Origin: an uncultured Gemmatimonadota bacterium
GTDB lineage: Bacteria; Gemmatimonadota; CAZMKB01; CAZNLH01
Assembly: GCA_964577985.1 (NCBI GenBank)
Contig: CAZOAR010000002.1
Coordinates: 13,130 to 77,129, forward strand
Length of the DNA: 64,000 nucleotides
Direction: 5' to 3'
The notes beneath the pieces were generated by a model. That model was not told the origin of the DNA and made no database searches. It worked only from the letters and a program-made list of their open reading frames with translations. Shown piece by piece: positions 16,579 through 62,928 of the stretch (its first letter is position 1; each line of letters begins with the position of its first letter). The translations under genes and the position numbers were made by a program.

Positions 16579-18894
16579 ATGAAAGGCCATAAGATATCTG
16601 TTGCACTTCTTCTTGCACTGCTGACGGTTTTCTCGACCGTCAGCCAGATCCACTCCTACTGCCTGATAAGGGGCGGCTTGGGAGGACCCGGCAACAGGGA
16701 GGACTGCTGCGCGCAGGACATATCACAATGGCGATGGGAGAACATGCCTGTCCCGATGTGGATAAATGACGGCACCGATCCCGACCTGTGGGATGGCATC
16801 CGAGTGGCGTATGACGTGTGGAACGAGGTGCCATCATCCTATTTCACAGTGGTGGACAGCGGTTTCACTCCCATAAACTATGTCAACGCATACGACGGGG
16901 TCAACGTCGTCAGTTTCAGCAACGACTCGACGCAGTTTCCTCCCGGAAGCAACACTATCGCCTTCACATCGGGAAACTGGGGCGCCAGAGTCGGGGATGA
17001 TTACACGATTACGGGCTTCGACGTTATCTTCAACGATGTCGGGTTCAATTTCGGCTATCCTCCCCCTCCAGGGGCGTTCAGCGTGGTAGGAATCGCGGGT
17101 CATGAACTGGGCCACGCGTGGGCACTTGCTCACTGCTGGGAGGGAGGGCCTCCCGGGTGCGGCCCCAACTGCACGACATCGACCATGTACGGCTACTCGA
17201 GCCCGCCCGGTACGTCGGATGAAAGCCTTGAACTCGATGACATCGCCTCAATCACACTGGCATATCCGAAGTGGCTCCTGCAGGGGCTCGTTCGAGATGC
17301 GGGGACTCACGATCCTCTGGACGGCGCGCTCATTACCGCTACCGCCCCGGTGGCGAAAGACACGTTGATCTATGGATCACTTCCCGATTCGCTTCCCGGC
17401 AACGGATCGACGTGCGGGTATGTCGGAGGGGCGATATCGACCGACGGCAACGGTAACTTCGAGATGGCCACACTCGATTCCGTCTACGATATAGTGGTCT
17501 TCAAGAGTGGGTATATGCCGGACACGCTGCAGGTCGCGTTTACGGGGATCGAGACACTCCAGGTGAGGGCCGACCTTGGACCGTCTGCACTTAGCTCGAT
17601 TACAGGTACCCTCACAGACGAGGGTACTCAGGAAGGGATCAACGGTTTTGTAGTGCTCATGCAGAATGGTCAGCCGTATGACACCGTGGCCACCGACGCC
17701 TTGACCGGAGCTTTCACCTTTTCCGATGTCCCCGTCTCGCTCCCGCCTTTTGTGGTCTACACGGGTGTAGAACTCCTCGCCAGCATGCCATATCCCCGGT
17801 CGGAGGAGATAGATACCACGATCGAGGTCACACAGGGCGGGCCGAGCGTCGTGGATTTTGCTATCTCCCCGGCTGATGTTTTCCTCGTCGATGACGACGG
17901 TGGTGACACTTACGAAGACTATTTCATGAACGAGATCAACGCGGTGGGCAGGACATACTACCACTTCGACATCAACGCGGAGGGCGAATCGGCGGTCAAC
18001 TATGTCGGCGTCTTTCCCCTCTCTTCCATCGTTCTCTGGTTTACCGGCGATGTCACGGAGAATACGCTGTCCCAGACCGAGCAGGACAGCCTCGAGAACT
18101 TTCTCGATCGGGGAGGAGACCTCTTCCTCACGGGCCAGAATATCGCGGAGGACCTCGACGCCCAGGGGTATGGTTTCCTCGAAGACTATCTCCACGTCAC
18201 CCACGAGGGGAACGCCTCGTACTTCATGGCGAGGGGTGTGTTCAACAACCCCGTCACCGGCTTCCTGCAGTCATTTGTCACATCGGGCTCTGGTGGCGCC
18301 AACAACCAGACATCGCGTGATATCCTGTCTCCCGCGCCTCCCGCTGAGGAGTTCATATACTATGTCGCCAGCCCGGCGGATCTGACACCACTCGGGACTG
18401 CAGCGACCTACGTCGAGGGACCGAGTTCCTCGAAGGCGATACTGATGGGATTCGGGTTCGAAGCGATAAACAGTCAGGGGGATGATTCCACTCGCGTCAC
18501 GCGCGAAGAGGCGATGCTCGCGATACTCAACTGGTTCGACGATATTGTGGGCATTGGTGACAATGATGTGTCGAGCGGCGGGCCGGCACTTCCAAGGGCG
18601 TTCGCGTTGAAGCAGAACTATCCGAATCCGTTCAACCCGCAGACCTCGATCCAGTTCGCCATACCCGCGGAGGAGGGCGGCAGCAAGGCGGAAGAGAAGG
18701 TCGTGCTGAAGGTGTATGACATGAGAGGAAGGATGGTTGATAAGCTCGTCGACAAGGCCCTCTCATCCGGCATCTATACCGTGCAATGGGATGGGAAGGA
18801 CTCGCGGGGAGTCAGGGTGCCGTCGGGCGTATATTTCTACAAACTCATCTGGGGTGATCAATCGAGCACGAGGAAGATGGTAGTGCTCAAGTAG
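16579..18894 (+). CDS. Secreted zinc metalloprotease (metzincin/matrixin-like) with T9SS C-terminal sorting domain
   Basis: Signal peptide. HELGHAWALAH (HExxHxxxxxH) zinc-binding motif. C-terminal about 90 aa (…LKQNYPNPFNPQTSIQFAIP…VYDMRGRMV…GVYFYKLIWGDQSSTRKMVVLK) matches the Por/T9SS CTD pattern. Confidence 0.75.
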   Translation: MKGHKISVALLLALLTVFSTVSQIHSYCLIRGGLGGPGNREDCCAQDISQWRWENMPVPMWINDGTDPDLWDGIRVAYDVWNEVPSSYFTVVDSGFTPINYVNAYDGVNVVSFSNDSTQFPPGSNTIAFTSGNWGARVGDDYTITGFDVIFNDVGFNFGYPPPPGAFSVVGIAGHELGHAWALAHCWEGGPPGCGPNCTTSTMYGYSSPPGTSDESLELDDIASITLAYPKWLLQGLVRDAGTHDPLDGALITATAPVAKDTLIYGSLPDSLPGNGSTCGYVGGAISTDGNGNFEMATLDSVYDIVVFKSGYMPDTLQVAFTGIETLQVRADLGPSALSSITGTLTDEGTQEGINGFVVLMQNGQPYDTVATDALTGAFTFSDVPVSLPPFVVYTGVELLASMPYPRSEEIDTTIEVTQGGPSVVDFAISPADVFLVDDDGGDTYEDYFMNEINAVGRTYYHFDINAEGESAVNYVGVFPLSSIVLWFTGDVTENTLSQTEQDSLENFLDRGGDLFLTGQNIAEDLDAQGYGFLEDYLHVTHEGNASYFMARGVFNNPVTGFLQSFVTSGSGGANNQTSRDILSPAPPAEEFIYYVASPADLTPLGTAATYVEGPSSSKAILMGFGFEAINSQGDDSTRVTREEAMLAILNWFDDIVGIGDNDVSSGGPALPRAFALKQNYPNPFNPQTSIQFAIPAEEGGSKAEEKVVLKVYDMRGRMVDKLVDKALSSGIYTVQWDGKDSRGVRVPSGVYFYKLIWGDQSSTRKMVVLK

Positions 18895-22861: not shown

Positions 22862-24472
22862 TCAGCGAGTGAGGATCATCTTCTTCGTCGAAGCAAGAGG
22901 TCCCGCCTTCAGTCGATACAGGTACACTCCGGATCCGACTGTCTGTCTATGATCGTTCTTTCCGTCCCAATGGACCGAGTATTGCCCCGGCTCTTCCTCT
23001 CTCTCCATCAGTGATCTGACTAATTGTCCCCGCAGATCGTAGATCTTCAGCTCCACATGAACAGCGTCTCCCGCCGGAATGGAGTAGCCGATCGTCGTCG
23101 ATGGGTTGAAGGGATTGGGATAGTTCTGGGCGAGTGTGAAGCTCCGGGGAATCGACCGGCCCGGCGGAGATCCCACACCCACGGGCTCTTCGATAATAGC
23201 CGTCCAGACACTCAGGTTGTAATTGTCCAGCCTCGTCCATACAGGGTAGATCTTCCCATTGAATGCGGCGACATTGATGTAGTCGCCGAAGAACACGTAA
23301 TGATCAGGTGTGAAGGAAGATTCGCTGACCCTGAAGTTGGTGAAGGTCTCTCCCCCGTCTTCCGACTTCGCCACAAATACGTCTGTTGCCACCCCACTCG
23401 TCTCCCGCCGGTCATAGAACACAACATAGATGATCCCGCTCACCGGATCCACCGTCATCCAGTTGAAGAACTGGTGCCTCGTGCCCGTGTCGTTGTTCAC
23501 CCGTACGACCTCTCCCCAGTTCGCTCCACCATCGGTCGAGGTGATGAAGAAGACGTCTGTATCGTCGGTTCCATTTCTCTGGTCGGACCAGCAGATGTAG
23601 ACGTTGCCCCGATACGGTGAATGGCTGATATCACTGGCTGTCACGGAAAACCCGTCGCACCGATATATCCCCGTGACATTGAAATCCCATCCCCCCGGTT
23701 GGGGATCGACAAAGATGTCCTCTCCAAAGGTCACACCGCCGTCCATCGACCTGTCGAACATGATGCCCTCCGGCCCTGACCAGCTCGTGTAAATCTCCCC
23801 GTTCGGCCCCACTGCCGGAACCGCGCCCTCTACCGTATCGTCGCTGTCGAGGCAGTTCCCGCCCTGGTCGCTCACCCGGACGGGTTCAGACCAGGTTTCG
23901 CCCTGGTCCGTCGACCGGGAGAAGAGGATCCGGGAGCTGTCGGCCGGATTGGAGCTGTCGTACTCATCGAATTCGGTCCAGGCCAGGTAAAGGTTCCCAC
24001 GGTACGGGGAATTCGTCAGGTCTGTCCCCATCCACTCCTTGTCCTGGTTAGCGGGGGGATTGAACCCCGCCGCCGAACCGTCGTTCCAGGTCAACCCACC
24101 ATCGGTCGACTTCTGGACTACGATGCGGTCGATCCAGTATCCGATGGAATCCGGCGGATTCGAGAGGTGAGAATAGTAGAGATTACCCTCCACGTCGAAG
24201 ATCACGCAGGGATCTCCCCACACACCAAATGCATCCGATGTCATGCGCCCCCCCACCCAGGAGTAACCTCCGTCCGTCGAGTAGTAGATATAATCGAGGT
24301 TCGCGCCCGCCGCCAGATTCATCCGATTCGTCGGATTGATGGCGATTGTCACCTCCTCGGGATCATAGCTCTCTTCGCCGCTGATCTGGACATTCTGGTA
24401 TTGAGCCGTGAGGATGCCCGGGATGCCGAAAAGCAGGACGATCAGACCGATATATCGGGTCACTCGAGGCAC
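22862..24472 (-). CDS. Secreted BNR/Asp-box repeat protein (sialidase / Ycf48-like beta-propeller) with T9SS C-terminal sorting domain
   Basis: Signal peptide. At least six Asp-box repeats (STDGGYSW, STDGGLTW, STDQGETW, SMDGGVTF, STDGGANW, SEDGGETF). C-terminal …LAQNYPNPFNPSTTIGYSIP…IYDLRGQLV…GVYLYRLKAG…KKMILTR T9SS CTD. GTG start. Confidence 0.75.
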   Translation of the reverse strand: MPRVTRYIGLIVLLFGIPGILTAQYQNVQISGEESYDPEEVTIAINPTNRMNLAAGANLDYIYYSTDGGYSWVGGRMTSDAFGVWGDPCVIFDVEGNLYYSHLSNPPDSIGYWIDRIVVQKSTDGGLTWNDGSAAGFNPPANQDKEWMGTDLTNSPYRGNLYLAWTEFDEYDSSNPADSSRILFSRSTDQGETWSEPVRVSDQGGNCLDSDDTVEGAVPAVGPNGEIYTSWSGPEGIMFDRSMDGGVTFGEDIFVDPQPGGWDFNVTGIYRCDGFSVTASDISHSPYRGNVYICWSDQRNGTDDTDVFFITSTDGGANWGEVVRVNNDTGTRHQFFNWMTVDPVSGIIYVVFYDRRETSGVATDVFVAKSEDGGETFTNFRVSESSFTPDHYVFFGDYINVAAFNGKIYPVWTRLDNYNLSVWTAIIEEPVGVGSPPGRSIPRSFTLAQNYPNPFNPSTTIGYSIPAGDAVHVELKIYDLRGQLVRSLMEREEEPGQYSVHWDGKNDHRQTVGSGVYLYRLKAGPLASTKKMILTR

Positions 24473-45734: not shown

Positions 45735-46895
45735 CTACACGGTGAATGATACCGTCGACCCGTCACTGAATGTAATCGTAAATGATGTACCCCTCATATC
45801 CACGTTGCTCGCCCCCCCACTCTGGGCGTCCTTGAATTTCTTGTACTCGATCTTCACATTGCTGCCGTCGCTTATTACAACCGCCGAGAATGTTTTTGTT
45901 TCTCCACTGCCGCCCCTCGGATTGTTGCTGTCGAAGACCTTAGTACCGCCGATCTTTATTTCTTCATACCAGGCACTGGTCGCGTAGACTGCCTTGATGG
46001 ACGTGATCGATATGTCGCTGCCGCTGTTGTTCTGAACAACAAACTCGACGTCTCGGTGGCCGTTCCCCTTAGCCTTGGCGGACCCCCCCAGCAGGGTAAG
46101 GCCGCCCGATCCCCCTGCCTGACTCCAGAGATCACCAGGCAACCTGATGTTGGACACGGCGTCTGACCCGGGCAGAAGAGATATATAGAGGACAGAAGTG
46201 TCCGACGTAGTGGAGTAGGTCGCCTGGAGTTGATGGTTTCCTATGGGTATCTGGTTGTTGAACGCGAAGGTGCCGGAAGCGTTCGGAGAGGTGGTCCGGG
46301 TGGTCATGCTTCCCGAACCATCAGGAAACGTTATCCTGAGCGTTACATTGGCGGCGTCAGTTCCCGGAGGGTTCCCCACACCGTCCAGTACTACTCCTTC
46401 CACGGTATTGCTCTTCAGGTCACTCATACTGCTGGCTATCGTCCTCGTGATAGCGCTTCCGCCGCCACTGCTGCTGATTGTCAGACCTCCGTTGTAGGTA
46501 TACTGATTCCCCCATTCATCGGTCTTGAAACCGTTCGCATTCTGGGTAAAATCGATCGCCATGTAAGGGCCATCCCAGGTGCCATAACCCGGATTGGTCA
46601 CGAGCTCGTCAAGGTTGGATGGCAGGCCACCCACGTCACCGAAATAACCAAAATCCGTCCGGACTCCACCAGAGTACAACTCGGGGTTTCCCACGATAGC
46701 CTGGACGAGTTGATCCATTTCCGCAATGGTACCCTCGAACCTGCTCCGGTCGAGTGTGTCCTGTATCGCTGTCATGGCGACCGTGCTCAGTATCCCGATA
46801 ATTACAATCACCATCAGCATTTCGAGGAACGTAAAACCGCGTCCGGCGGCATCCATCCCCGCCCTTTTGTCAGCATGCAAGAGTGATAATCTCAT
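45735..46895 (-). CDS. Large type IV pilin-like protein (prepilin N-terminal methylation motif)
   Basis: Leader …AGRG|FTFLEMLMVIVIIGILS matches the class III signal G|FTxxE plus a hydrophobic helix. Long Gly/Ser/Thr-rich C-terminal beta region. Start Met uncertain (46895 or 46856). Confidence 0.65.
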   Translation of the reverse strand: MRLSLLHADKRAGMDAAGRGFTFLEMLMVIVIIGILSTVAMTAIQDTLDRSRFEGTIAEMDQLVQAIVGNPELYSGGVRTDFGYFGDVGGLPSNLDELVTNPGYGTWDGPYMAIDFTQNANGFKTDEWGNQYTYNGGLTISSSGGGSAITRTIASSMSDLKSNTVEGVVLDGVGNPPGTDAANVTLRITFPDGSGSMTTRTTSPNASGTFAFNNQIPIGNHQLQATYSTTSDTSVLYISLLPGSDAVSNIRLPGDLWSQAGGSGGLTLLGGSAKAKGNGHRDVEFVVQNNSGSDISITSIKAVYATSAWYEEIKIGGTKVFDSNNPRGGSGETKTFSAVVISDGSNVKIEYKKFKDAQSGGASNVDMRGTSFTITFSDGSTVSFTV

Positions 46896-47092
46896 GTCTT
46901 TGACCGCCTCACCAATTAACAATGCTTCGCGTTATGAGCAATTGCCTGCTCGTTGTCCATAGCAATCGCGTATTCATGGTCATTCCCGCTTGTCGGGAAT
47001 CTCCCTGGAAAAGGATGCCCGCAGGACGATGCGAGAGACTTCCGTCGTCTTTCAGCGTATGCGCTGCAATCGCCGACGTCATGCCCGATCTC

Positions 47093-54488: not shown

Positions 54489-54857
54489 TTATGTTTTATC
54501 TTTATGCCGTTCCCGACTGCCATGTGTTTCGTGATAATAAGCGCCCTGCTCCTTAGTGTCAAGCTTTAATGAGGAGTGTCCCTGGAGGGATTTCCTGAGG
54601 CGGTTTTCATCTACTCTATATTTAAACGCCTTGCGGCCACAGACGAAGATAACCGGTATCTCTTCGCCATAGAGCCTGGTGAGCTCATCATCTTTCGAGA
54701 TGTCTATTTCACGATAAACGAACGGGATCTCCTGCTTCACCCTCATTATCACGTCCTTCGCCTTTCGGCAGAGAGAGCATCCCGACCGCGTATAGAGTGA
54801 AACGGTCAGGTTACTCGATTCTGATATATTTGCACCTTCCATCCTATTCAGCATCAT
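54489..54857 (-). CDS. Glutaredoxin-like protein (thioredoxin fold, CxxC = CSLC)
   Basis: …VSLYTRSGCSLCRKAKDV…IPVIFVCGR… resembles NrdH/glutaredoxin. Start Met uncertain (several Mets between 54842 and 54899). Sits immediately downstream of selenoprotein candidate A. Confidence 0.6.
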   Translation of the reverse strand: MMLNRMEGANISESSNLTVSLYTRSGCSLCRKAKDVIMRVKQEIPFVYREIDISKDDELTRLYGEEIPVIFVCGRKAFKYRVDENRLRKSLQGHSSLKLDTKEQGAYYHETHGSRERHKDKT

Positions 54858-55806
54858 AGATTCTCCGGAGCTGCGCCTTCCTCCTCGTCCTGTACTCATC
54901 CAGAAAAGGCAGCATCCCTGACTGGTCTTCGATGTCGGACCCGAGGGGAATCAATTCCGCGCTTTTCTGTTCAACGGGGCTATCGCCGAGCCCGAGATCC
55001 AGCCGCCCGAGAGAACGTCCGTGAGTCTCACCCTTCAGGACCACTGTTCCACCAACCAATATGGGATCGTAGATCCTTGTGCCACCGTGCCCCAGTATTA
55101 CCACGTCGAGGTTCTGGTACTTCTCTGCCAGTTTCCTGCCCTCATCGAAACCGACGTGGAACAAACCCACGAGGAGATCGACTTTATCCTTCAATTCTAT
55201 CGTGAGTTTCTCGACACGTTCATCCGGATCCGCCATAACCCATCCAGGGGCCATCATACCATCGCCGGTCGGCAGCGTGACACCTATCAACCCGATCTTC
55301 AACCCGCCCCTGTCGACAATCAGAGATGGTATGCCGACTTCCTCGCCCTCGAACTCGAGATTACACGAAAGAAGCGGTAGACGTCCAGAAAGACTCTCAA
55401 TGAATTGATTCCCCATGGCTAGATCTCGCTCGCCGGGGACAACGGCGTCATACTTCATCGCCGCCATAGCCTTTGCCAGTATATCCGATTTGAGCTCACC
55501 CAGCGGGTCCGGCGCCAGCGAGAAGTCGCCCACATTCACGAGCAGCACAGCCTGGCCCTCTTGTCTTATCTTATCGATCATCGTCGCCCGCCGGGCGATT
55601 CCACCCTGAAGGGGCTTCTTTCACCCGCACGGCTCCAGGTATCCCAGCTCGTCCGAACTGTACAGGATCGTCACCAGAGAAGATTCCTCGGCGGGAGAGG
55701 AGACCGGGAAAAGCAGCGCCGCCACACATGAAAGAAGGAGAAACAGTCCGGCCCCCGGAGATGAAATAACTCGGCCAATACGGGTCCCTGACAAGGAACT
55801 CATCAT
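54844..55806 (-). CDS. Candidate selenoprotein A: secreted degenerate metallophosphoesterase-like protein with in-frame TGA (Sec) at 55621..55623, motif …YLEPCG-U-KKP…
   Basis: ORF-track entries 55621..55806 and 54844..55581 are in the same frame (55623-55581=42) and separated only by TGA plus 13 sense codons (KKPLQGGIARRAT). Signal peptide. ILYSSDELG replaces the DxH motif-I, NVGDFS is motif II, GERDL replaces GNHE, and GHGG is retained. The ATG overlaps the TGA of the DtxR-like gene. Confidence 0.6.
55584..55598 (-). promoter_or_regulatory. Putative SECIS-like hairpin about 25 nt downstream of the UGA of selenoprotein A
   Basis: mRNA UCGCCCGGCGGGCGA (5-6 bp GC stem). The same nucleotide sequence occurs at the equivalent position in paralog B. 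Confidence 0.35.
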
Positions 55807-56666
55807 GTCACCTCCCTCACAAAAATCTCTCTGCCGACGGCCTTATCGAGCGCGACCGTTGTCTCGTCCACCTCCACCACGTAGCTGGGATGGCGCTGTT
55901 TGAGTCTGAGGACGCCGCCCGGCGCCAGTCCAAGCGTGCCGAGGCGCTCGAGCCTGCTCTGATAGCTTGGTGTTATGAACACAACACGTGCTTTCTTTCC
56001 CACTTCGAGGTTCGTCAATGGCGTCACAAGGGGTTCGATATGCGTTCCGAAGATCCTGCAGCAGTCGCCCCGGGGGATAGCCTTCCCGTGGGGACAGGTC
56101 GGGGGATGCCCGAGGAATGTGCACACCCTGTCGGTCACCTGAGGGCTCAATATGTGTTCGAACTTGCAGGCACTGCTGTGGGCCTCAGGATCGCCTACGT
56201 CGAGAATCTCCATGAGCAGTCGTTCTGCGAGCCGGTGACTGCGCACGATCTTTCTGGCGATCGCTCTCCCACGTTCCTTCATGAATATTTCGCCATCCCC
56301 GAGCGAGATCAGACCTCTATCCTCTATCGCTCTCAGCTGATCTGACAGCTGCCCCTTCCCCTTGAAATCCACTGAGTCATGCGGCGATTCATCGCTTTCC
56401 GCCTCTCGTGTCCCAGATTCGCCTTCGAGCATCGACACCTTGAGGCCGCCTTCTCCTCCACCCTCTTCCCACAACCACAACCTTTGGAGCAATTCTTCTA
56501 TGCGTTCTTCCAACTCTACTCTCCCTGGCTTTCTTCCCTGTGACTGAACCCGCGCTTGATGACAGCGCATATCCTGCCGATAATATCTACAATCTTCGAT
56601 TGGCCGACGACCTGATACCCGCAGCGGGGACAGCAGGCAAGATGGTTCCCGCTCGACAGGGGGCAA
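55803..56666 (-). CDS. DtxR/IdeR-family metal-dependent regulator with C-terminal FeoA/SH3-like domain
   Basis: …SHRLAERLLMEIL…, …CTFLGHPPTCPHGKAIP… (DtxR metal site). C-terminal …VGKKARVVFITP…LGLAPGGVLRLKQRHPSYVVEVDETTVAL (FeoA-like). N-terminal extension is atypical and the start is uncertain. Confidence 0.7.
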   Translation of the reverse strand: MPPVEREPSCLLSPLRVSGRRPIEDCRYYRQDMRCHQARVQSQGRKPGRVELEERIEELLQRLWLWEEGGGEGGLKVSMLEGESGTREAESDESPHDSVDFKGKGQLSDQLRAIEDRGLISLGDGEIFMKERGRAIARKIVRSHRLAERLLMEILDVGDPEAHSSACKFEHILSPQVTDRVCTFLGHPPTCPHGKAIPRGDCCRIFGTHIEPLVTPLTNLEVGKKARVVFITPSYQSRLERLGTLGLAPGGVLRLKQRHPSYVVEVDETTVALDKAVGREIFVREVT

Positions 56667-56718
56667 GTGGAGCAGCTCGAATTATCCCGATCGAATTCAA
56701 GACCACACAACTGACACG

Positions 56719-58680
56719 TCAGAATGTCCAACCCATGCCTCTCAGGATCGTGTTCAACACACCGCCCGTCAGGATCGCAAACGGGAAAATGAAGGCCATC
56801 ATCGCCAGGGCCATGCCCAGTCCCCTCTCCTTGACGATTATAAAGAAATTGGCGATGCATGGAACGAAAAGAGTTATCGTGACCAGGCTCACGACTATCT
56901 GAACACCGTCGAGCTTGCCGTCACGCGCCAGCATGAAGAGCCCGGCGGCGCCATAATCTCTCCGCAGAAATCCCACGACAAAAGACTCGGTCGTTTCACC
57001 CGGCAGACCCAGAAAACCCTCGACAACGGGTCGTGCCGCGTGTTCAACGGCCGACAGGAGTCCGATCCTGCTGGAGAGGAAAAGAACCAGCGTGCCAAGG
57101 ACAAAGAGGGGAACCGCCTCCTTGAGATACCACTCTATCCGGGCGACACTCTTTGTCACTATGTTCTTCATCTGCGGAAGCCTCACCGGGGGTATCTCGA
57201 GTATGAAATCCGCCCGTTCTCCGGGAATCACAAGTGATGCCAGAAAACCCACGAGGAGCAACATGCACGAGATTACTCCCACCCAGAGCAGAGTCGCCCC
57301 GAACGACAGGCCCCCCAGCATTCCCAGAATGACCCCGAGCTGTGCGGAGCACGGAACGCCGAGGGCGAGAAGCAGTGTCGTAACGATCTTCTCTTTCCTG
57401 CTGCCCAGGATACGTGTCGTCAGTGTGGCCATGGTGTCACATCCGAGTCCAAGGATCATGGGCAGGACGGCTTTTCCGTTGAGACCTATCATTCTGAATA
57501 CCCTGTCCACCATGACGGCGAGCCTGGGCAGGTAGCCCGAATCTTCCAGTATACCGAAGGCGACAAAGAAAGTGCCTACAACAGGAAGTACGATCGCCAC
57601 TGAATAGGTAAGCGCCATAGTGAAGACACCATATTCCCCGACGAGGAGGTCCCGTACAAGCTGAAACGGGATGATGGCGTCGACCAACCTTGTGACAGCC
57701 GGATTTACATACTCACCAAAGACCACACCTTCCATGAAGTTCACCATATCACCGGCTCCCAGCACACCCACAAACTCATACAGAAGATAGAGTACGACAA
57801 GCAGGAACGGAATGCCCCACAGGGGATGCATGGCCAATTCCCCGATATCCTTCACGACGGATGACTTCCGGGCGGCTTTTTTCGAAAGCACCTTGTCCAG
57901 GATCCTGTCGATCGCCCACAACCGCTGCTGATTGATGATCGACCCGATGGGCTGCGCGTATTTAGCCCTCATCACCCTGCACACTTTCTCGATGCCATCG
58001 ATCGCATCGGTGTTTATCCTGTCTCTGAGATACGGTATTATCGTCGTGTCGCCGGAAAGCAACATCAGCGCCAGGGAACGCCGAGCTATCGCGCAGTGGG
58101 GCAGCAATTCCTCGAGTCCGGCTATTGCCTCCTCGACTTCCTCCGAATATACGACAGGTCTTCCTGTTTTCTTCTCTTTCGTGATACCCTTCAGGAGGGA
58201 GTCGATCCCCTCTCTTCGGGTCGCCACTGTAGAAACAACGTCTATACCAAGCAATTCCGAGAGCCTGTCCGTGTCAACCTTTATGCCTCGGTTACTGGCC
58301 TCGTCGCCCATATTCAGATCGAGGAGGAAGGGGAGTCCCATCTCGATCAACTGTATGGAGATGCTGAGAGCACGCCTGAGGTTTTTCGCATCCGCGACCT
58401 GTACGATGCTGTCCGCCGGGTGCTCAAGAAGGACATTCCGCGTCACCTCTTCATCCTCCGATGTGGGCACCAGACTGTTAATCCCGGGCGTGTCAAAGAC
58501 GGTATAGCTCTCTCCGCCGAGTACCACCTTCCCTACACTCATCTCAACGGTGGTCCCCGGATAATTGGACACGGTCACATATCGTCCGGTCATGACATTG
58601 AAGAGCACGCTCTTTCCCACGTTGGGGTTGCCCACCAGGATCAGCTTCTTCTCTATTCTTTCAGTGCGGGTTCTGGTCAT
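56719..58680 (-). CDS. feoB: Ferrous iron transporter B
   Basis: G-domain LILVGNPNVGKSVLFN…DTPG. Long polytopic C-terminal permease. Confidence 0.9.
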   Translation of the reverse strand: MTRTRTERIEKKLILVGNPNVGKSVLFNVMTGRYVTVSNYPGTTVEMSVGKVVLGGESYTVFDTPGINSLVPTSEDEEVTRNVLLEHPADSIVQVADAKNLRRALSISIQLIEMGLPFLLDLNMGDEASNRGIKVDTDRLSELLGIDVVSTVATRREGIDSLLKGITKEKKTGRPVVYSEEVEEAIAGLEELLPHCAIARRSLALMLLSGDTTIIPYLRDRINTDAIDGIEKVCRVMRAKYAQPIGSIINQQRLWAIDRILDKVLSKKAARKSSVVKDIGELAMHPLWGIPFLLVVLYLLYEFVGVLGAGDMVNFMEGVVFGEYVNPAVTRLVDAIIPFQLVRDLLVGEYGVFTMALTYSVAIVLPVVGTFFVAFGILEDSGYLPRLAVMVDRVFRMIGLNGKAVLPMILGLGCDTMATLTTRILGSRKEKIVTTLLLALGVPCSAQLGVILGMLGGLSFGATLLWVGVISCMLLLVGFLASLVIPGERADFILEIPPVRLPQMKNIVTKSVARIEWYLKEAVPLFVLGTLVLFLSSRIGLLSAVEHAARPVVEGFLGLPGETTESFVVGFLRRDYGAAGLFMLARDGKLDGVQIVVSLVTITLFVPCIANFFIIVKERGLGMALAMMAFIFPFAILTGGVLNTILRGMGWTF

Positions 58681-58711
58681 AGATCACCGGTCAACGCCGT
58701 ATCGCTCCTCA

Positions 58712-59179
58712 TCAGTCAATCTCCGTCGAACATTTCCTGCACAGCCCGTAGATCACCAGCTCATGATCCCGGGCGTCAAAGCTGAGCTTGTCAATTACGA
58801 CCTCCTGCAGCCGTTCTATATCAGGCACCTCGAACTCGATCACCTCGCCGCAATCCTCGCAAATCAAGTGATCGTGATGGCGTTTGTCAATGATCCTTTC
58901 GAATTTCCGGAACCCGACGCCGAAATCGTGCTCCCGGACCACCCCACTCGAGACCATCAGCGCGAGCGTCCTGTAAATGGTCGCCAGACCTATCCTGAGG
59001 TTCTTCTTCTTCAGGACGAGCGCGAGTTCCTCCACGGAGAAATGGCCATCCATCGACATGACCGTCGTCGCGATTTGCTCCCGCTGAAGCGTGAGAAACA
59101 GCTTCTCCTCTCTGAGGTACTCCCTGAATCTGCCTGTAGTATCCATGATCTGCTCTTCGAAATTGAGAATGATTATCAA
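58712..59179 (-). CDS. fur: Fur-family transcriptional regulator
   Basis: …LRRTLQREQIATTVMS… HTH. HHDHLICEDCGEVIEFE metal site plus C-terminal CRKC. The true start is likely the internal ATG at 59146. Confidence 0.85.
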   Translation of the reverse strand: MIIILNFEEQIMDTTGRFREYLREEKLFLTLQREQIATTVMSMDGHFSVEELALVLKKKNLRIGLATIYRTLALMVSSGVVREHDFGVGFRKFERIIDKRHHDHLICEDCGEVIEFEVPDIERLQEVVIDKLSFDARDHELVIYGLCRKCSTEID

Positions 59180-59183
59180 TATA
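59165..59183. promoter_or_regulatory. Fur box in the fur / oxidoreductase divergent promoter region
   Basis: GAGAATGATTATCAATATA matches GATAATGATAATCATTATC at 15 of 19 positions. Confidence 0.5.
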
Positions 59184-59275
59184 AGTTATCGGCGATACGG
59201 TCAGCTGTCAAGGACCATTTGACTCGACTGATGAGAATGGCTAATATAACACAAACGCAAGAGGAGGAACCAGAG

Positions 59276-60966: not shown

Positions 60967-61506
60967 TCAGAGCAATTCCTCGATCTTCTCCTCCATAAAC
61001 GCACGCCCCCTGAAGCCTTCGAGCATTTCCCTTACTCTTCCCTCCCTATCAAAGATAAATGTCGTGGGAACTCCCCCTATTCCGCCGAAGAGGTGAGCCG
61101 TCTCCACGCTGCCGATCAGGAGAGGGATCTTGACCTTGTGCCTCTCGATAAAAGAATTGAGATACTTACCCTCCCCCTTGTCGAGAGAGATGGCTACGAC
61201 TTCCAGGCCCTCTTTCTTATGTTCCGACTCGAGCCTGTCGAGCCCCTTCAGTTCGGCTACACTCGCCTCCGCGGATGGCATCCAGAAGAGAATGACAACG
61301 ACTTTTCCCCACAACTCGGATGAGCTGTGGATTCCGGCGCGATGGTCCTTCAGGGAGAACCGCGGAAGATATGCCTCATCAGGCAACCCGTAGGGTTTTT
61401 TCCCTGGATAGAACAGAACGATGGCCGTGACAATCGCGATCAATACCAGCGCGGAGAAGATCAAGATCTTTCGCCGGCTCTTTTCGGACCTTTTCACACA
61501 CATCAC
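60967..61506 (-). CDS. TlpA/ResA-like thioredoxin-fold protein lacking the CxxC active site
   Basis: N-terminal TM anchor. Thioredoxin fold (…GKVVVILFWMPSAEASVAELKGL…VVAISLD…IPTTFIFDREGRV…) in which the canonical WCxPC is replaced by WMPSAEAS. Confidence 0.65.
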   Translation of the reverse strand: MMCVKRSEKSRRKILIFSALVLIAIVTAIVLFYPGKKPYGLPDEAYLPRFSLKDHRAGIHSSSELWGKVVVILFWMPSAEASVAELKGLDRLESEHKKEGLEVVAISLDKGEGKYLNSFIERHKVKIPLLIGSVETAHLFGGIGGVPTTFIFDREGRVREMLEGFRGRAFMEEKIEELL

Positions 61507-61596: not shown

Positions 61597-62928
61597 TCAG
61601 TGAACGAGATCCTTCATCGCCTCGTAGTCGAAGCCCTCTCCCCTCTCACCCGTGTGACAGGTGATGCATACAAAGACATTGCCCGCCTGTAGAGGCGCGT
61701 TTCCTTTGTCGGCAATATGCCTTGACGCCGGACCATGGCACTGTTCGCACTGGACGTTATTGAAGTTGGGAGTCTCGTCTATTGTCACAAAACCGCCTTT
61801 CTGATAACCGGTCGTGTGACACTTCACGCATTCCGGGTTGTACTCCTCGCCTTCCTTCTTGAGCGTAAGAAAAGCACGGGCGTGGCTCGTAGCATTCCAC
61901 TTCTCGTATATCTCAGCATGACAGGAACGGCACCACGCGGCGCCCATGTAGCCCGCCTTAGAACCCTTCAATTGCCCCCTTCGAGCATCCACATCGCTTT
62001 TTACCATATCCTTGACTCTCGACTGGTAGTCGGAGTAGAGTTCCGCCATCTCTGTGTCATCAGCGACCTTCGCGTCGAGAGGCACGAGTTCTCCGGAGAA
62101 TTCTACGATTTCCTTCGCCTTACGGTCAAAGGTAAGATCTATCCTGCCAAGATACTTACCCTTATCACCGGACTGGGCCATTATGGCTCCACCAACCGAT
62201 ACCGGTGTCTTCACCCTTCGACCCTGATGCCCCACGACAACGACATCTATCCCCTCCTGGCTTTCCGCCAGCGCAACCGACTGCCGATATCCCAGATGGC
62301 TCATCACCACAACAAGGTCGACCTTCTTACGCAATCTCGGAATGGCCTCCGCGAGGGCCTCGAACGGATCCTGGACCGTCCATTCCTCCTGCCCGACCCT
62401 GAGTTGATCAAGGGTGACCCCCACTATGCCGATTTTGATTCCTCCCCGCTTGATTATGAGATCTTTCCTGCCAAACTGCTTCCCGTTGTACTTCATATTC
62501 GTGTCGACGATGGGGATATCGCTCTTCTTCATCGTCTCCATGACAAACTCATCACCAAGCGCCAGTTCTCTCTCACCAAGCACAAGCGCGTCGTAATGCA
62601 TCTTCTTCATCGCCTCGAGGGACACGCTGCTCTTGACCCTTCCCTGATCGGTTGGCTTGCCGGCAAAATCTCCCAGACCCAGTATCAAGATCTCTCTATC
62701 CTCGTCTTCCGCCTCTCGTATCTTCGTCGCCCGCCGGGCGACCCCTCCCATAGGGTGCTTCTTTCAGCCACACGGTTCGAGATACCCGTATTCATCGCCT
62801 GTGTAGAGGATCGTAAGATTAACCAGGTCGCCACCCCTGGATGATGCGGGCAGAAGAGGAATGGACAGGAAGAGCGGCACGATGGAGGTCAGCGCCGCCG
62901 CGATAAGACACTTGTTTCGAAAAGACAT
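61597..62928 (-). CDS. Candidate selenoprotein B: secreted metallophosphoesterase-like domain with in-frame TGA (Sec) at 62764..62766 (…YLEPCG-U-KKH…) fused to a C-terminal tetraheme cytochrome c
   Basis: ORF-track entries 62764..63009 and 61597..62751 share a frame (62763-62751=12) and are separated by TGA plus four sense codons (KKHP). Signal peptide from the internal Met (MSFRNKCLIAAALTSIVPLFLSIPLLPASS). Motifs ILYTGDEYG / GLGDFAG / GERELALG / VVGHQG. C-terminal CRSCH, CVKCH, CEQCH, CITCH. Confidence 0.6.
62726..62742 (-). promoter_or_regulatory. Putative SECIS-like hairpin about 25 nt downstream of the UGA of selenoprotein B
   Basis: mRNA GUCGCCCGGCGGGCGAC (7-bp stem, 3-nt loop). Core GCCCGGCGGGCGAC is identical to the paralog A site. 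Confidence 0.35.

Follow-up and report, generated by a model that had tools for sequence, protein, structure and literature searches.

When a gene with an in-frame UGA is packed among genes for iron uptake, is its product a selenoprotein, is it made in response to iron, and does it take part in iron acquisition itself? These questions are raised by a locus in an uncultured Gemmatimonadota bacterium (GenBank assembly GCA_964577985.1, contig CAZOAR010000002.1, positions 13,130 to 77,129), of which the whole stretch of 64 kb that was analysed is called the window. Here, genes for a Fur-family regulator, the ferrous iron transporter FeoB and a DtxR/IdeR-type protein are followed by the UGA-containing gene, named selA in this work, and its product, selenoprotein A. 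According to the reading we favour, to which we give a probability of roughly one half, the string would be a single Fur-repressed transcription unit from which selA is co-expressed at low iron, its translation coupled to that of the dtxR-like gene, its UGA recoded as selenocysteine (Sec) and its product exported. Features lie on the minus strand unless stated otherwise, and start codons were picked by orthologue alignment. From 59183 down to 54489, the open reading frame (ORF) list, translations and profile searches give the following gene order:

58712-59146, minus strand: fur, Fur-family regulator, 144 amino acids from ATG 59146 (PF01475, 6e-31).
56719-58680, minus strand: feoB, ferrous iron transporter, 653 amino acids (TIGR00437, 404.1 bits against a cutoff of 315.65).
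56516-56731, minus strand: Cys-rich zinc-ribbon-like ORF, 71 amino acids, TTG start (tblastn conservation in the clade).
55803-56513, minus strand: dtxR-like gene for a DtxR/IdeR-type protein, 236 amino acids, TTG start 56513 (PF02742, 2e-26; PF04023, 1.6e-11).
54844-55806, minus strand: selA, predicted UshA-like CxU selenoprotein of exported type, 320 amino acids (NF041198, 3e-41).
54489-54857, minus strand: glutaredoxin-like gene (grx), DUF836, with a CSLC motif and without signal peptide (PF05768, 2.6e-18).

Profile matches confirmed each identity in the string that the original prediction had described as fur, feoB, DtxR-like regulator, selenoprotein and glutaredoxin-like gene; one small ORF, the 71-residue Cys-rich one, had been overlooked. 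Alignment of orthologues places the start of the dtxR-like gene behind this ORF, at TTG 56513 instead of the 56666 given before. The junctions measure +31 nucleotides (nt) for fur/feoB, -13 nt for feoB/Cys-rich ORF, +2 nt for Cys-rich ORF/dtxR, -4 nt for dtxR/selA and, for selA/grx, either -14 nt (ATG 54857, with the selA TAG at 54844-54846) or +1 nt (ATG 54842). The short gaps noted previously are thus real from feoB to grx, while of the two ATGA overlaps claimed a single one is true, the dtxR/selA stop/start overlap at 55803-55806. A GGAGG ribosome-binding site precedes selA. As judged from these distances, the packing from feoB to grx has an operon layout.

Whether the UGA is decoded as Sec depends on two elements within selA:

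55621-55623, minus strand: in-frame UGA, predicted to be read as Sec, motif PCG-U (frame conservation, Cys homologues).
55584-55598, minus strand: Sec insertion sequence (SECIS)-like hairpin TCGCCC-GGC-GGGCGA, starting 22 nt after the UGA (covariation).

The sequence across the UGA is GYLEPCG-U-KKPLQGGIARRAT, and the frame GYLEPCG-U-KK...GGIARRAT is continuous through the stop in both paralogs of the window and in about 20 sequences from the uncultured clade of the close selA orthologues (hereafter the clade), Chloroflexota and other phyla. Orthologues of selA at 52-59% identity keep the frame as well, and many homologues, including those of Polyangia, have Cys at the Sec column (PC-x-C). The hairpin starts 22-25 nt downstream of the UGA in these sequences, over codons for (I/V/L)-A-R-R-A-(T/S), which are I-A-R-R-A-T in selA. 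Among 20 Sec-form sequences, 87% of cells were paired, compared with 34-49% when the partner was slid by 1-3 columns. Pair 18-30 is CG in nine sequences, GC in seven, AU in two and UA in one, the changes being made via synonymous third-codon positions, and the observed covariation score was reached by no shuffle. Only this comparative analysis was informative for the hairpin: single-sequence folding of the 59 nt downstream of the UGA was unexceptional (z = -1.2 to -1.3), and Rfam at gathering thresholds gave no match in the window.

An in-frame UGA, a Cys/Sec pair among the homologues and a stem-loop at SECIS distance are all present, and three agreeing lines (frame, Cys homologues and covarying hairpin) support decoding of the UGA as Sec. 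The opposite reading takes the UGA as a true stop, so that the locus would encode a 61-residue peptide and a separate protein of 245 residues and no selenoprotein. Public gene callers, which annotate genes of 48 and 242 amino acids, agree with it, as do the unexceptional single-sequence fold and the window itself, which contains neither tRNA-Sec nor sel genes. A true stop is difficult to reconcile with a conserved motif, GYLEPCG-*-KK...GGIARRAT, that runs on through the stop in some 20 sequences of several phyla, with Cys at this position in many homologues, with a hairpin that covaries at synonymous sites and with the curated selenoprotein family to which the protein is related. We regard it as very improbable.

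The 320-residue product read through TGA has a signal-peptide-like N-terminus and matches 5'-nucleotidase N-domains in PDB (E 2e-14) as well as SoxB (TIGR04486, 1.7e-22). Its match to NF041198 (UshA_like_PCGU; 3.2e-41) covers profile positions 7-270 of 519 with 141.5 bits and stays below the cutoff of 275. It contains the UshA/5'-nucleotidase-type metallophosphoesterase N-domain of this family, with PCG-U after the first beta-strand followed by GGxARRA. Neither CXXCH nor a cytochrome domain is found in it, and the C-terminal multihaem half of the profile is unmatched. On these profile and motif matches, selenoprotein A belongs, as a short version, to the UshA-like CxU selenoproteins, a known family that was listed as "COG0737 UshA-like, CxU" in the Global Ocean Sampling (GOS) selenoproteome (PMC2398784) and appears in later reviews (PMC9312934, PMC13188914). 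The name selenoprotein A is also that of the glycine reductase component GrdA; this identity was rejected, since no GrdA family is among the Pfam and NCBIfam matches, all of which are metallophosphoesterases.

Several residues indicate how the scaffold may have changed. The motif I His is replaced by L, Q or Y and the motif III NH by ER across the family, so that some of the canonical metal ligands are gone. PCG-U/C, N149, H217 and LGRLD are invariant throughout the family; D52, D94, E126, N149, H217, H240 and PCG-U are invariant between A-type and B-type proteins (the latter represented by paralog B, described below), and selenoprotein A keeps all of them. Because the motif I His and the motif III Asn-His are lost, PCG-U/C is invariant and most relatives are fused to haem domains, we infer that selenoprotein A carries out Cys-Sec redox catalysis on a remodelled metallophosphoesterase scaffold.

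Control by iron is suggested by two elements in front of fur:

59164-59183, minus strand: predicted Fur operator TATATTGATAATCATTCTCA, with the 7-1-7 core TGATAATcATTCTCA at 59164-59178 (consensus match, uniqueness, clade conservation).
59183-59211, minus strand: putative fur promoter, -35 TTGACA at 59206-59211, 17-nt spacer, -10 TAACTT at 59183-59188 (read from sequence).

Scored against the 19-mer Fur-box consensus GATAATGATAATCATTATC (consensus sequences from PMC11353095), the site at 59165-59183 matches at 16 of 19 positions on the minus strand, or at 15 of 19 in the orientation used for the original prediction. It is the sole site with three or fewer mismatches in the window (0.00 expected, 100 shuffles); a second, overlapping register at 59159-59177 has four mismatches. 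The core TGATAATcATTCTCA is one mismatch from the 7-1-7 Fur consensus, and shuffles yield 0.005 such sites per 64 kb. Six distinct clade loci cover the region (the window, W, together with L001, L168, L173, L174 and L176). All six have an identical core, TGATAATnATTCTCA, which is the sole such site in each of them; the box follows TTGACA at a distance of 26-27 nt throughout, the operator is always located between the -10 and the fur start, and the surrounding intergenic sequence has diverged. By statistics and, most strongly, by its conservation across loci, the predicted operator is real.

The putative promoter was not called by a generic promoter scan because its -10 is weak. ATG 59146 was taken as the fur start because the L174 orthologue begins MDYIVQFKEYL, compared with MDTTGRFREYL here. 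The operator lies 18-37 nt upstream of this ATG, and box and start codon therefore do not overlap. The Fur box that had been proposed is thus borne out as a unique and conserved site; its reported overlap with the fur start is not, unless the upstream TTG 59179 serves as the start.

There is precedent for Fur binding a feoAB operator (PMC11353095). Fur-like palindromes were also detected directly upstream of outgroup feoB loci (L178, 4563-4577, CGATAATAGTTATCA; L181, 5487-5501, TGAAAATGGTTTTCA) from Deltaproteobacteria and Nitrospirota; therefore, Fur control seems general in this FeoB lineage. A search for the IdeR/DtxR operator TTAGGTTAGGCTAACCTAA, which allowed up to six mismatches and took in the window and the orthologous loci, gave no relevant site. 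Elsewhere in the window, a second Fur-box-like 19-mer, GATAATTACAATCACCATC, is present at 46797-46815 (plus strand), with four mismatches and no match to the 7-1-7 core; it sits within an ORF without Pfam match (45735-46922).

An operon layout together with a statistically genuine, conserved Fur operator makes iron-responsive expression of the selenoprotein a reasonable inference. Co-transcription of the string, and hence iron-repressed expression of selA, is likely. In the favoured model, Fe2+-bound Fur would occupy the operator just downstream of the -10 and block transcription, and low iron would allow the whole string to be transcribed. Translation of selA would be coupled to that of the dtxR-like gene through the ATGA overlap, the UGA would be recoded as Sec by means of the hairpin 22 nt downstream, and the protein would then be exported. 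The iron link would thus be regulatory, with the selenoprotein as an optional accessory outside the Feo transport machinery.

Five observations weigh against this model. The Fur-family protein has Fur equivalogs as its top NCBIfam matches, followed by PerR and then Zur, and scores below every equivalog cutoff. Export is predicted from the appearance of the N-terminus only. Neither Sec machinery nor tRNA-Sec was detected in the window, where ARAGORN reported no tRNA, although this says little for a 64-kb fragment. The spacing of dtxR and selA, never above about 90 nt among the orthologues (range, 27 to about 90 nt), fits an operon, but in L168 it holds TGATATAAT, an extended -10-like sequence, so that internal promoters are possible. 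Finally, the adjacency of selA to feo genes is confined to the clade, in which about 17 kb are collinear, including genes on the opposite strand; it is therefore inseparable from inherited synteny, and the conserved position weighs little.

The distribution of the linkage gives further clues to the role of the protein. Close orthologues of selA comprise seven distinct sequences with 52-59% identity, all from metagenome contigs or metagenome-assembled genomes (MAGs) of this one clade. In every contig that extends far enough, selA comes immediately after the DtxR-type gene and has a YbbR-like gene downstream. The collinear region includes paralog B, a redoxin gene, genes for a peptidyl-prolyl isomerase (PPIase) and an alcohol dehydrogenase (ADH) on the other strand, the feo string, the YbbR gene, response regulators and type II secretion system (T2SS) genes. 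No further selA orthologue above 34% identity was among the genome and metagenome contig matches listed, and the back-translated pattern GYLEPCGC cannot match TGA; a second back-translated pattern returned at least 600 matches, which were ordinary 5'-nucleotidases. Two more clade members, found by searching from the DtxR-type protein, have the operon without the selenoprotein:

L174/L175: Fur box, fur, feoB, Cys-rich ORF and dtxR kept; then the glutaredoxin-like gene, with no room for selA; paralog B nearby.
L176/L177: Fur box, fur, feoB, Cys-rich ORF and dtxR kept; then the glutaredoxin-like gene, with no room for selA; no paralog B nearby.

Outside the clade, a MAG of Nitrospirota has fur-feoB-dtxR with no selenoprotein in the module, and in a deltaproteobacterial relative feoB stands by itself. 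For the Feo linkage, 46 distant loci of the PCGU/PCGC family (Brocadiales, Poribacteria, Desulfatiglans, Anaerolineales, Latescibacterota, Nitrospinaceae and others), most of them multihaem-fused, served as a negative control. Within about 10 kb, no homologue of FeoB, Fur, DtxR or Grx is encoded at any of the 46. Their commonest neighbours are DUF1573/immunoglobulin (Ig)-like proteins and pyrroloquinoline quinone (PQQ)-type propeller proteins, and no iron-uptake Pfam family is among the 25 commonest neighbour families. These presence/absence data indicate that the core module is Fur box-fur-feoB-(Cys-rich ORF)-dtxR, to which the selenoprotein is a clade-specific, dispensable addition, carried by most clade members at the 3' end of the operon.

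Within the wider family, proteins with GYLEPCG-C fused to multihaem cytochromes were observed in Brocadiales/Scalindua, Poribacteria, Desulfatiglans and others (L009-L087, e.g. L010, L019 and L035), often adjoining DUF1573/Ig-like proteins. Sec forms with the motif HTNDxxGxxxPCG-U-G occur in Chloroflexota (L013, L020), sometimes as two nearby copies.

The window encodes a second member of the family, 6 kb from selA:

61597-62928, minus strand: paralog B, predicted full-length UshA-like PCGU selenoprotein with a C-terminal four-haem c554-like domain (NF041198; PF13435, 3e-17).

Paralog B has a UGA at 62764-62766 within the same GYLEPCG-U-KK motif and four CXXCH, and it passes NF041198 with 297.9 bits (cutoff, 275). 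Identity between A and B is 37-38%, and A stops exactly where the cytochrome domain of B starts. The haem-less copy of the feo operon is likely derived from paralog B. In the clade, A is seen only together with B (4/4 loci in which both regions are covered); B occurs without A in one locus, and in another both are missing. Adjoining B is a gene for a membrane-anchored protein of thioredoxin fold, the redoxin (60967-61506, minus strand), which has S-x-x-S (FWKVSVESS) in place of the CxxC of TlpA/ResA and is therefore redox-dead; five clade loci retain the S-x-x-S. L168 has a DsbD_TM (CcdA-like) gene between the redoxin gene and B (2242-2961).

What, then, might the selenoprotein do in this operon? 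One answer is that it is an iron-sparing isoform, a haem-free backup of the four-haem paralog B that is made behind the Fur operator when iron is scarce. Iron-sparing replacements of this kind have parallels in flavodoxin, which replaces ferredoxin, and in the Zur-controlled ribosomal protein paralogs. Consistent with this idea, A corresponds to B minus exactly the cytochrome domain, with the shared catalytic-core residues retained; the single Fur box of the window precedes the operon of A and not B; and A has been seen only alongside B. The co-occurrence counts are tiny, however, and the identity of 37-38% implies that the duplication is old and that functions may have diverged. A haem-less A would also need another periplasmic electron donor, and the adjoining redoxin has SxxS. 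We consider this answer unlikely, if worth keeping in view. A different view is that selA is a passenger that came to lie, or was kept, between dtxR and grx/ybbR through a duplication and insertion that happened by chance, with an iron coupling that is incidental or absent, as would be so if it had a promoter or a transcript of its own. The presence of selA varies within the clade, as does that of the grx-like gene at the same spot; synteny of the whole region accounts for the conserved position; and the orthologues have gaps of 27 to about 90 nt, one of them with the -10-like sequence mentioned above. Such a passenger would hardly be expected to have, as selA has in the window, a start overlapping the dtxR stop and a good ribosome-binding site, with no non-coding stretch left that could hold a promoter, nor to remain intact, with UGA and hairpin kept, across protein identities of 52-59%. 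This view, too, is plausible but rather unlikely.

The role in iron acquisition or ferric reduction that had originally been suggested would, for example, make selenoprotein A a periplasmic enzyme that reduces ferric iron or its chelates, or a protein that handles Fe2+ and passes it on to FeoB. Its gene is tightly placed and translationally coupled after feoB and dtxR behind a Fur operator, a position kept in at least seven distinct orthologues with 52-59% identity, and the metallophosphoesterase fold commonly binds Fe or Mn. Yet the same operon lacks selA in two clade members and in Nitrospirota; elsewhere, the family has no Feo, Fur or TonB association (FeoB, Fur or DtxR in 0/46 distant loci); the canonical metal ligands are partly lost across the family; and neither a redox cofactor nor an electron donor is encoded alongside selA. 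The suggestion does not hold up well against these data, and we judge such a role speculative and improbable. Within the favoured model of a Fur-repressed unit that includes selA, this role and the iron-sparing one would be competing sub-readings, of which the iron-sparing one fits no less well. A tentative proposal, against which the odds still lie, is that the Sec enzyme came under Fur control either as a haem-free stand-in for its four-haem paralog or as a recruited periplasmic redox helper for FeoB-dependent uptake.

The remaining products of the string were also analyzed. FeoB has a complete set of domains (FeoB_N, FeoB_Cyto, Gate and FeoB_C). No stand-alone FeoA, an SH3-like protein of about 8 kDa, is encoded; the FeoA domain is only the C-terminal domain of the 236-residue DtxR-type protein. 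All clade loci have the 71-residue Cys-rich ORF in the corresponding place (tblastn, E 1e-13 to 1e-21), and it is annotated as a gene in L175-L177. Its Pfam matches are weak and of zinc-ribbon type, it belongs to no curated family, and it is absent from the Nitrospirota fur-feoB-dtxR module. The glutaredoxin-like gene follows dtxR or selA in W, L006, L171, L172, L174 and L176 and is absent from L001, L007, L168 and L173. Inside the non-conserved 3' tail of this ORF, immediately before the YbbR-like gene, is the sequence that most resembles a promoter anywhere in the region (TTGACA-17-TATTAT, 11/12; 54534-54562, minus strand); the feo transcription unit may end here.

The DtxR-type protein consists of a divergent winged-helix domain, a metal-binding/dimerisation domain and an SH3-like (FeoA) domain. 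It had been presented as an unusual fusion of FeoA to a DtxR regulator. This is the ordinary three-domain layout of DtxR/IdeR proteins with their C-terminal SH3-like domain, and its homologues number more than 1000; PF02742 and PF04023 are the only domains in the best 120 of 1292 matches, whose architecture was inspected. Nor is the order special in which FeoB precedes the FeoA-domain protein: fur-feoB-dtxR recurs outside the clade, and the FeoA match is the normal C-terminal domain of DtxR. Alignment to the IdeR and DtxR structures showed that the IdeR ligands H79, E83, H98, C102, E105 and H106 are all kept. The helix-turn-helix (HTH) model PF01325 had no match in the protein by Pfam search. 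An AlphaFold (AF2) model with a mean predicted local distance difference test (pLDDT) value of 80 keeps the H1-H2-H3-wing topology, with residues 33-53 disordered, corresponding to an insertion of about 20 residues in the HTH turn. The would-be recognition helix H3 is the least conserved part across the orthologues, the remainder being almost invariant, and four extra Cys residues (C131, C140, C151 and C152) are invariant in 44 homologues. Instead of a classical repressor, the protein may be a metal sensor that partners FeoB in the manner of FeoA. In other parts of the window, secreted proteins with FlgD_ig and Por_Secre_tail domains (type IX secretion system (T9SS) sorting) are encoded at 16579-18894 (plus strand) and 22862-24472; they give a hint of an organism from the FCB group.

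A prior report of a selenoprotein-FeoB linkage was not found in the searchable literature, and a haem-less UshA-like CxU selenoprotein at the end of a putatively autoregulated fur-feoB-dtxR operon appears to be a new combination of known parts in one uncultured clade. A copy under predicted Fur control offers a testable condition, iron limitation, for a family that has been catalogued since the mid-2000s without a functional clue, and the haem-less and haem-fused paralogs within one genome suggest which partner supplies electrons. Should the stand-in reading be true, this would be the first iron-sparing paralog replacement involving a selenoprotein; either the stand-in or the redox-helper reading would be the first clue to the physiology of the UshA-like CxU proteins. 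We take the finding as a regulation lead in one uncultured lineage and not as a new mechanism of iron acquisition, and, taken together, these proteins do not form an iron-uptake family.

Comparison with known systems places the locus more precisely. With other members of the UshA-like CxU family, selenoprotein A shares the 5'-nucleotidase/SoxB-type N-domain, PCG-U with GG(I/V/L)ARRA, the Cys/Sec interchange and a signal-peptide-like N-terminus; it differs in lacking the C-terminal multihaem half and in its feo-operon context, which is unseen in the 46 other family loci. The homologous N-terminal domain of SoxB, UshA and CD73 has the motif II D, motif IV H and motif V H that are retained in selenoprotein A, whereas the latter has lost the His of motif I (DxH), has GERD for GNHE in motif III and has gained Cys-Gly-Sec; the C-terminal substrate-binding domain of SoxB and the 5'-nucleotidases is also missing from it. 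With GrdA it has only the label "selenoprotein A" and Sec in common, with no sequence relationship. The DtxR-type protein resembles DtxR/IdeR regulators in its metal ligands and in the C-terminal SH3-like domain that Pfam calls FeoA; unlike them, it has no PF01325 match and contains the HTH-turn insertion, a non-conserved recognition helix and the four invariant extra Cys. As in the Fur-repressed feo operons, such as feoAB1 of Magnetospirillum gryphiswaldense and feoABC of E. coli, FeoB is encoded behind a 19-bp/7-1-7 Fur operator. In contrast to these operons, the string described here has no stand-alone FeoA or FeoC; instead, it has the zinc-ribbon ORF and a three-domain DtxR-type protein, with a selenoprotein and/or glutaredoxin-like gene appended, and its first gene is fur, which implies that the operon is autoregulated.

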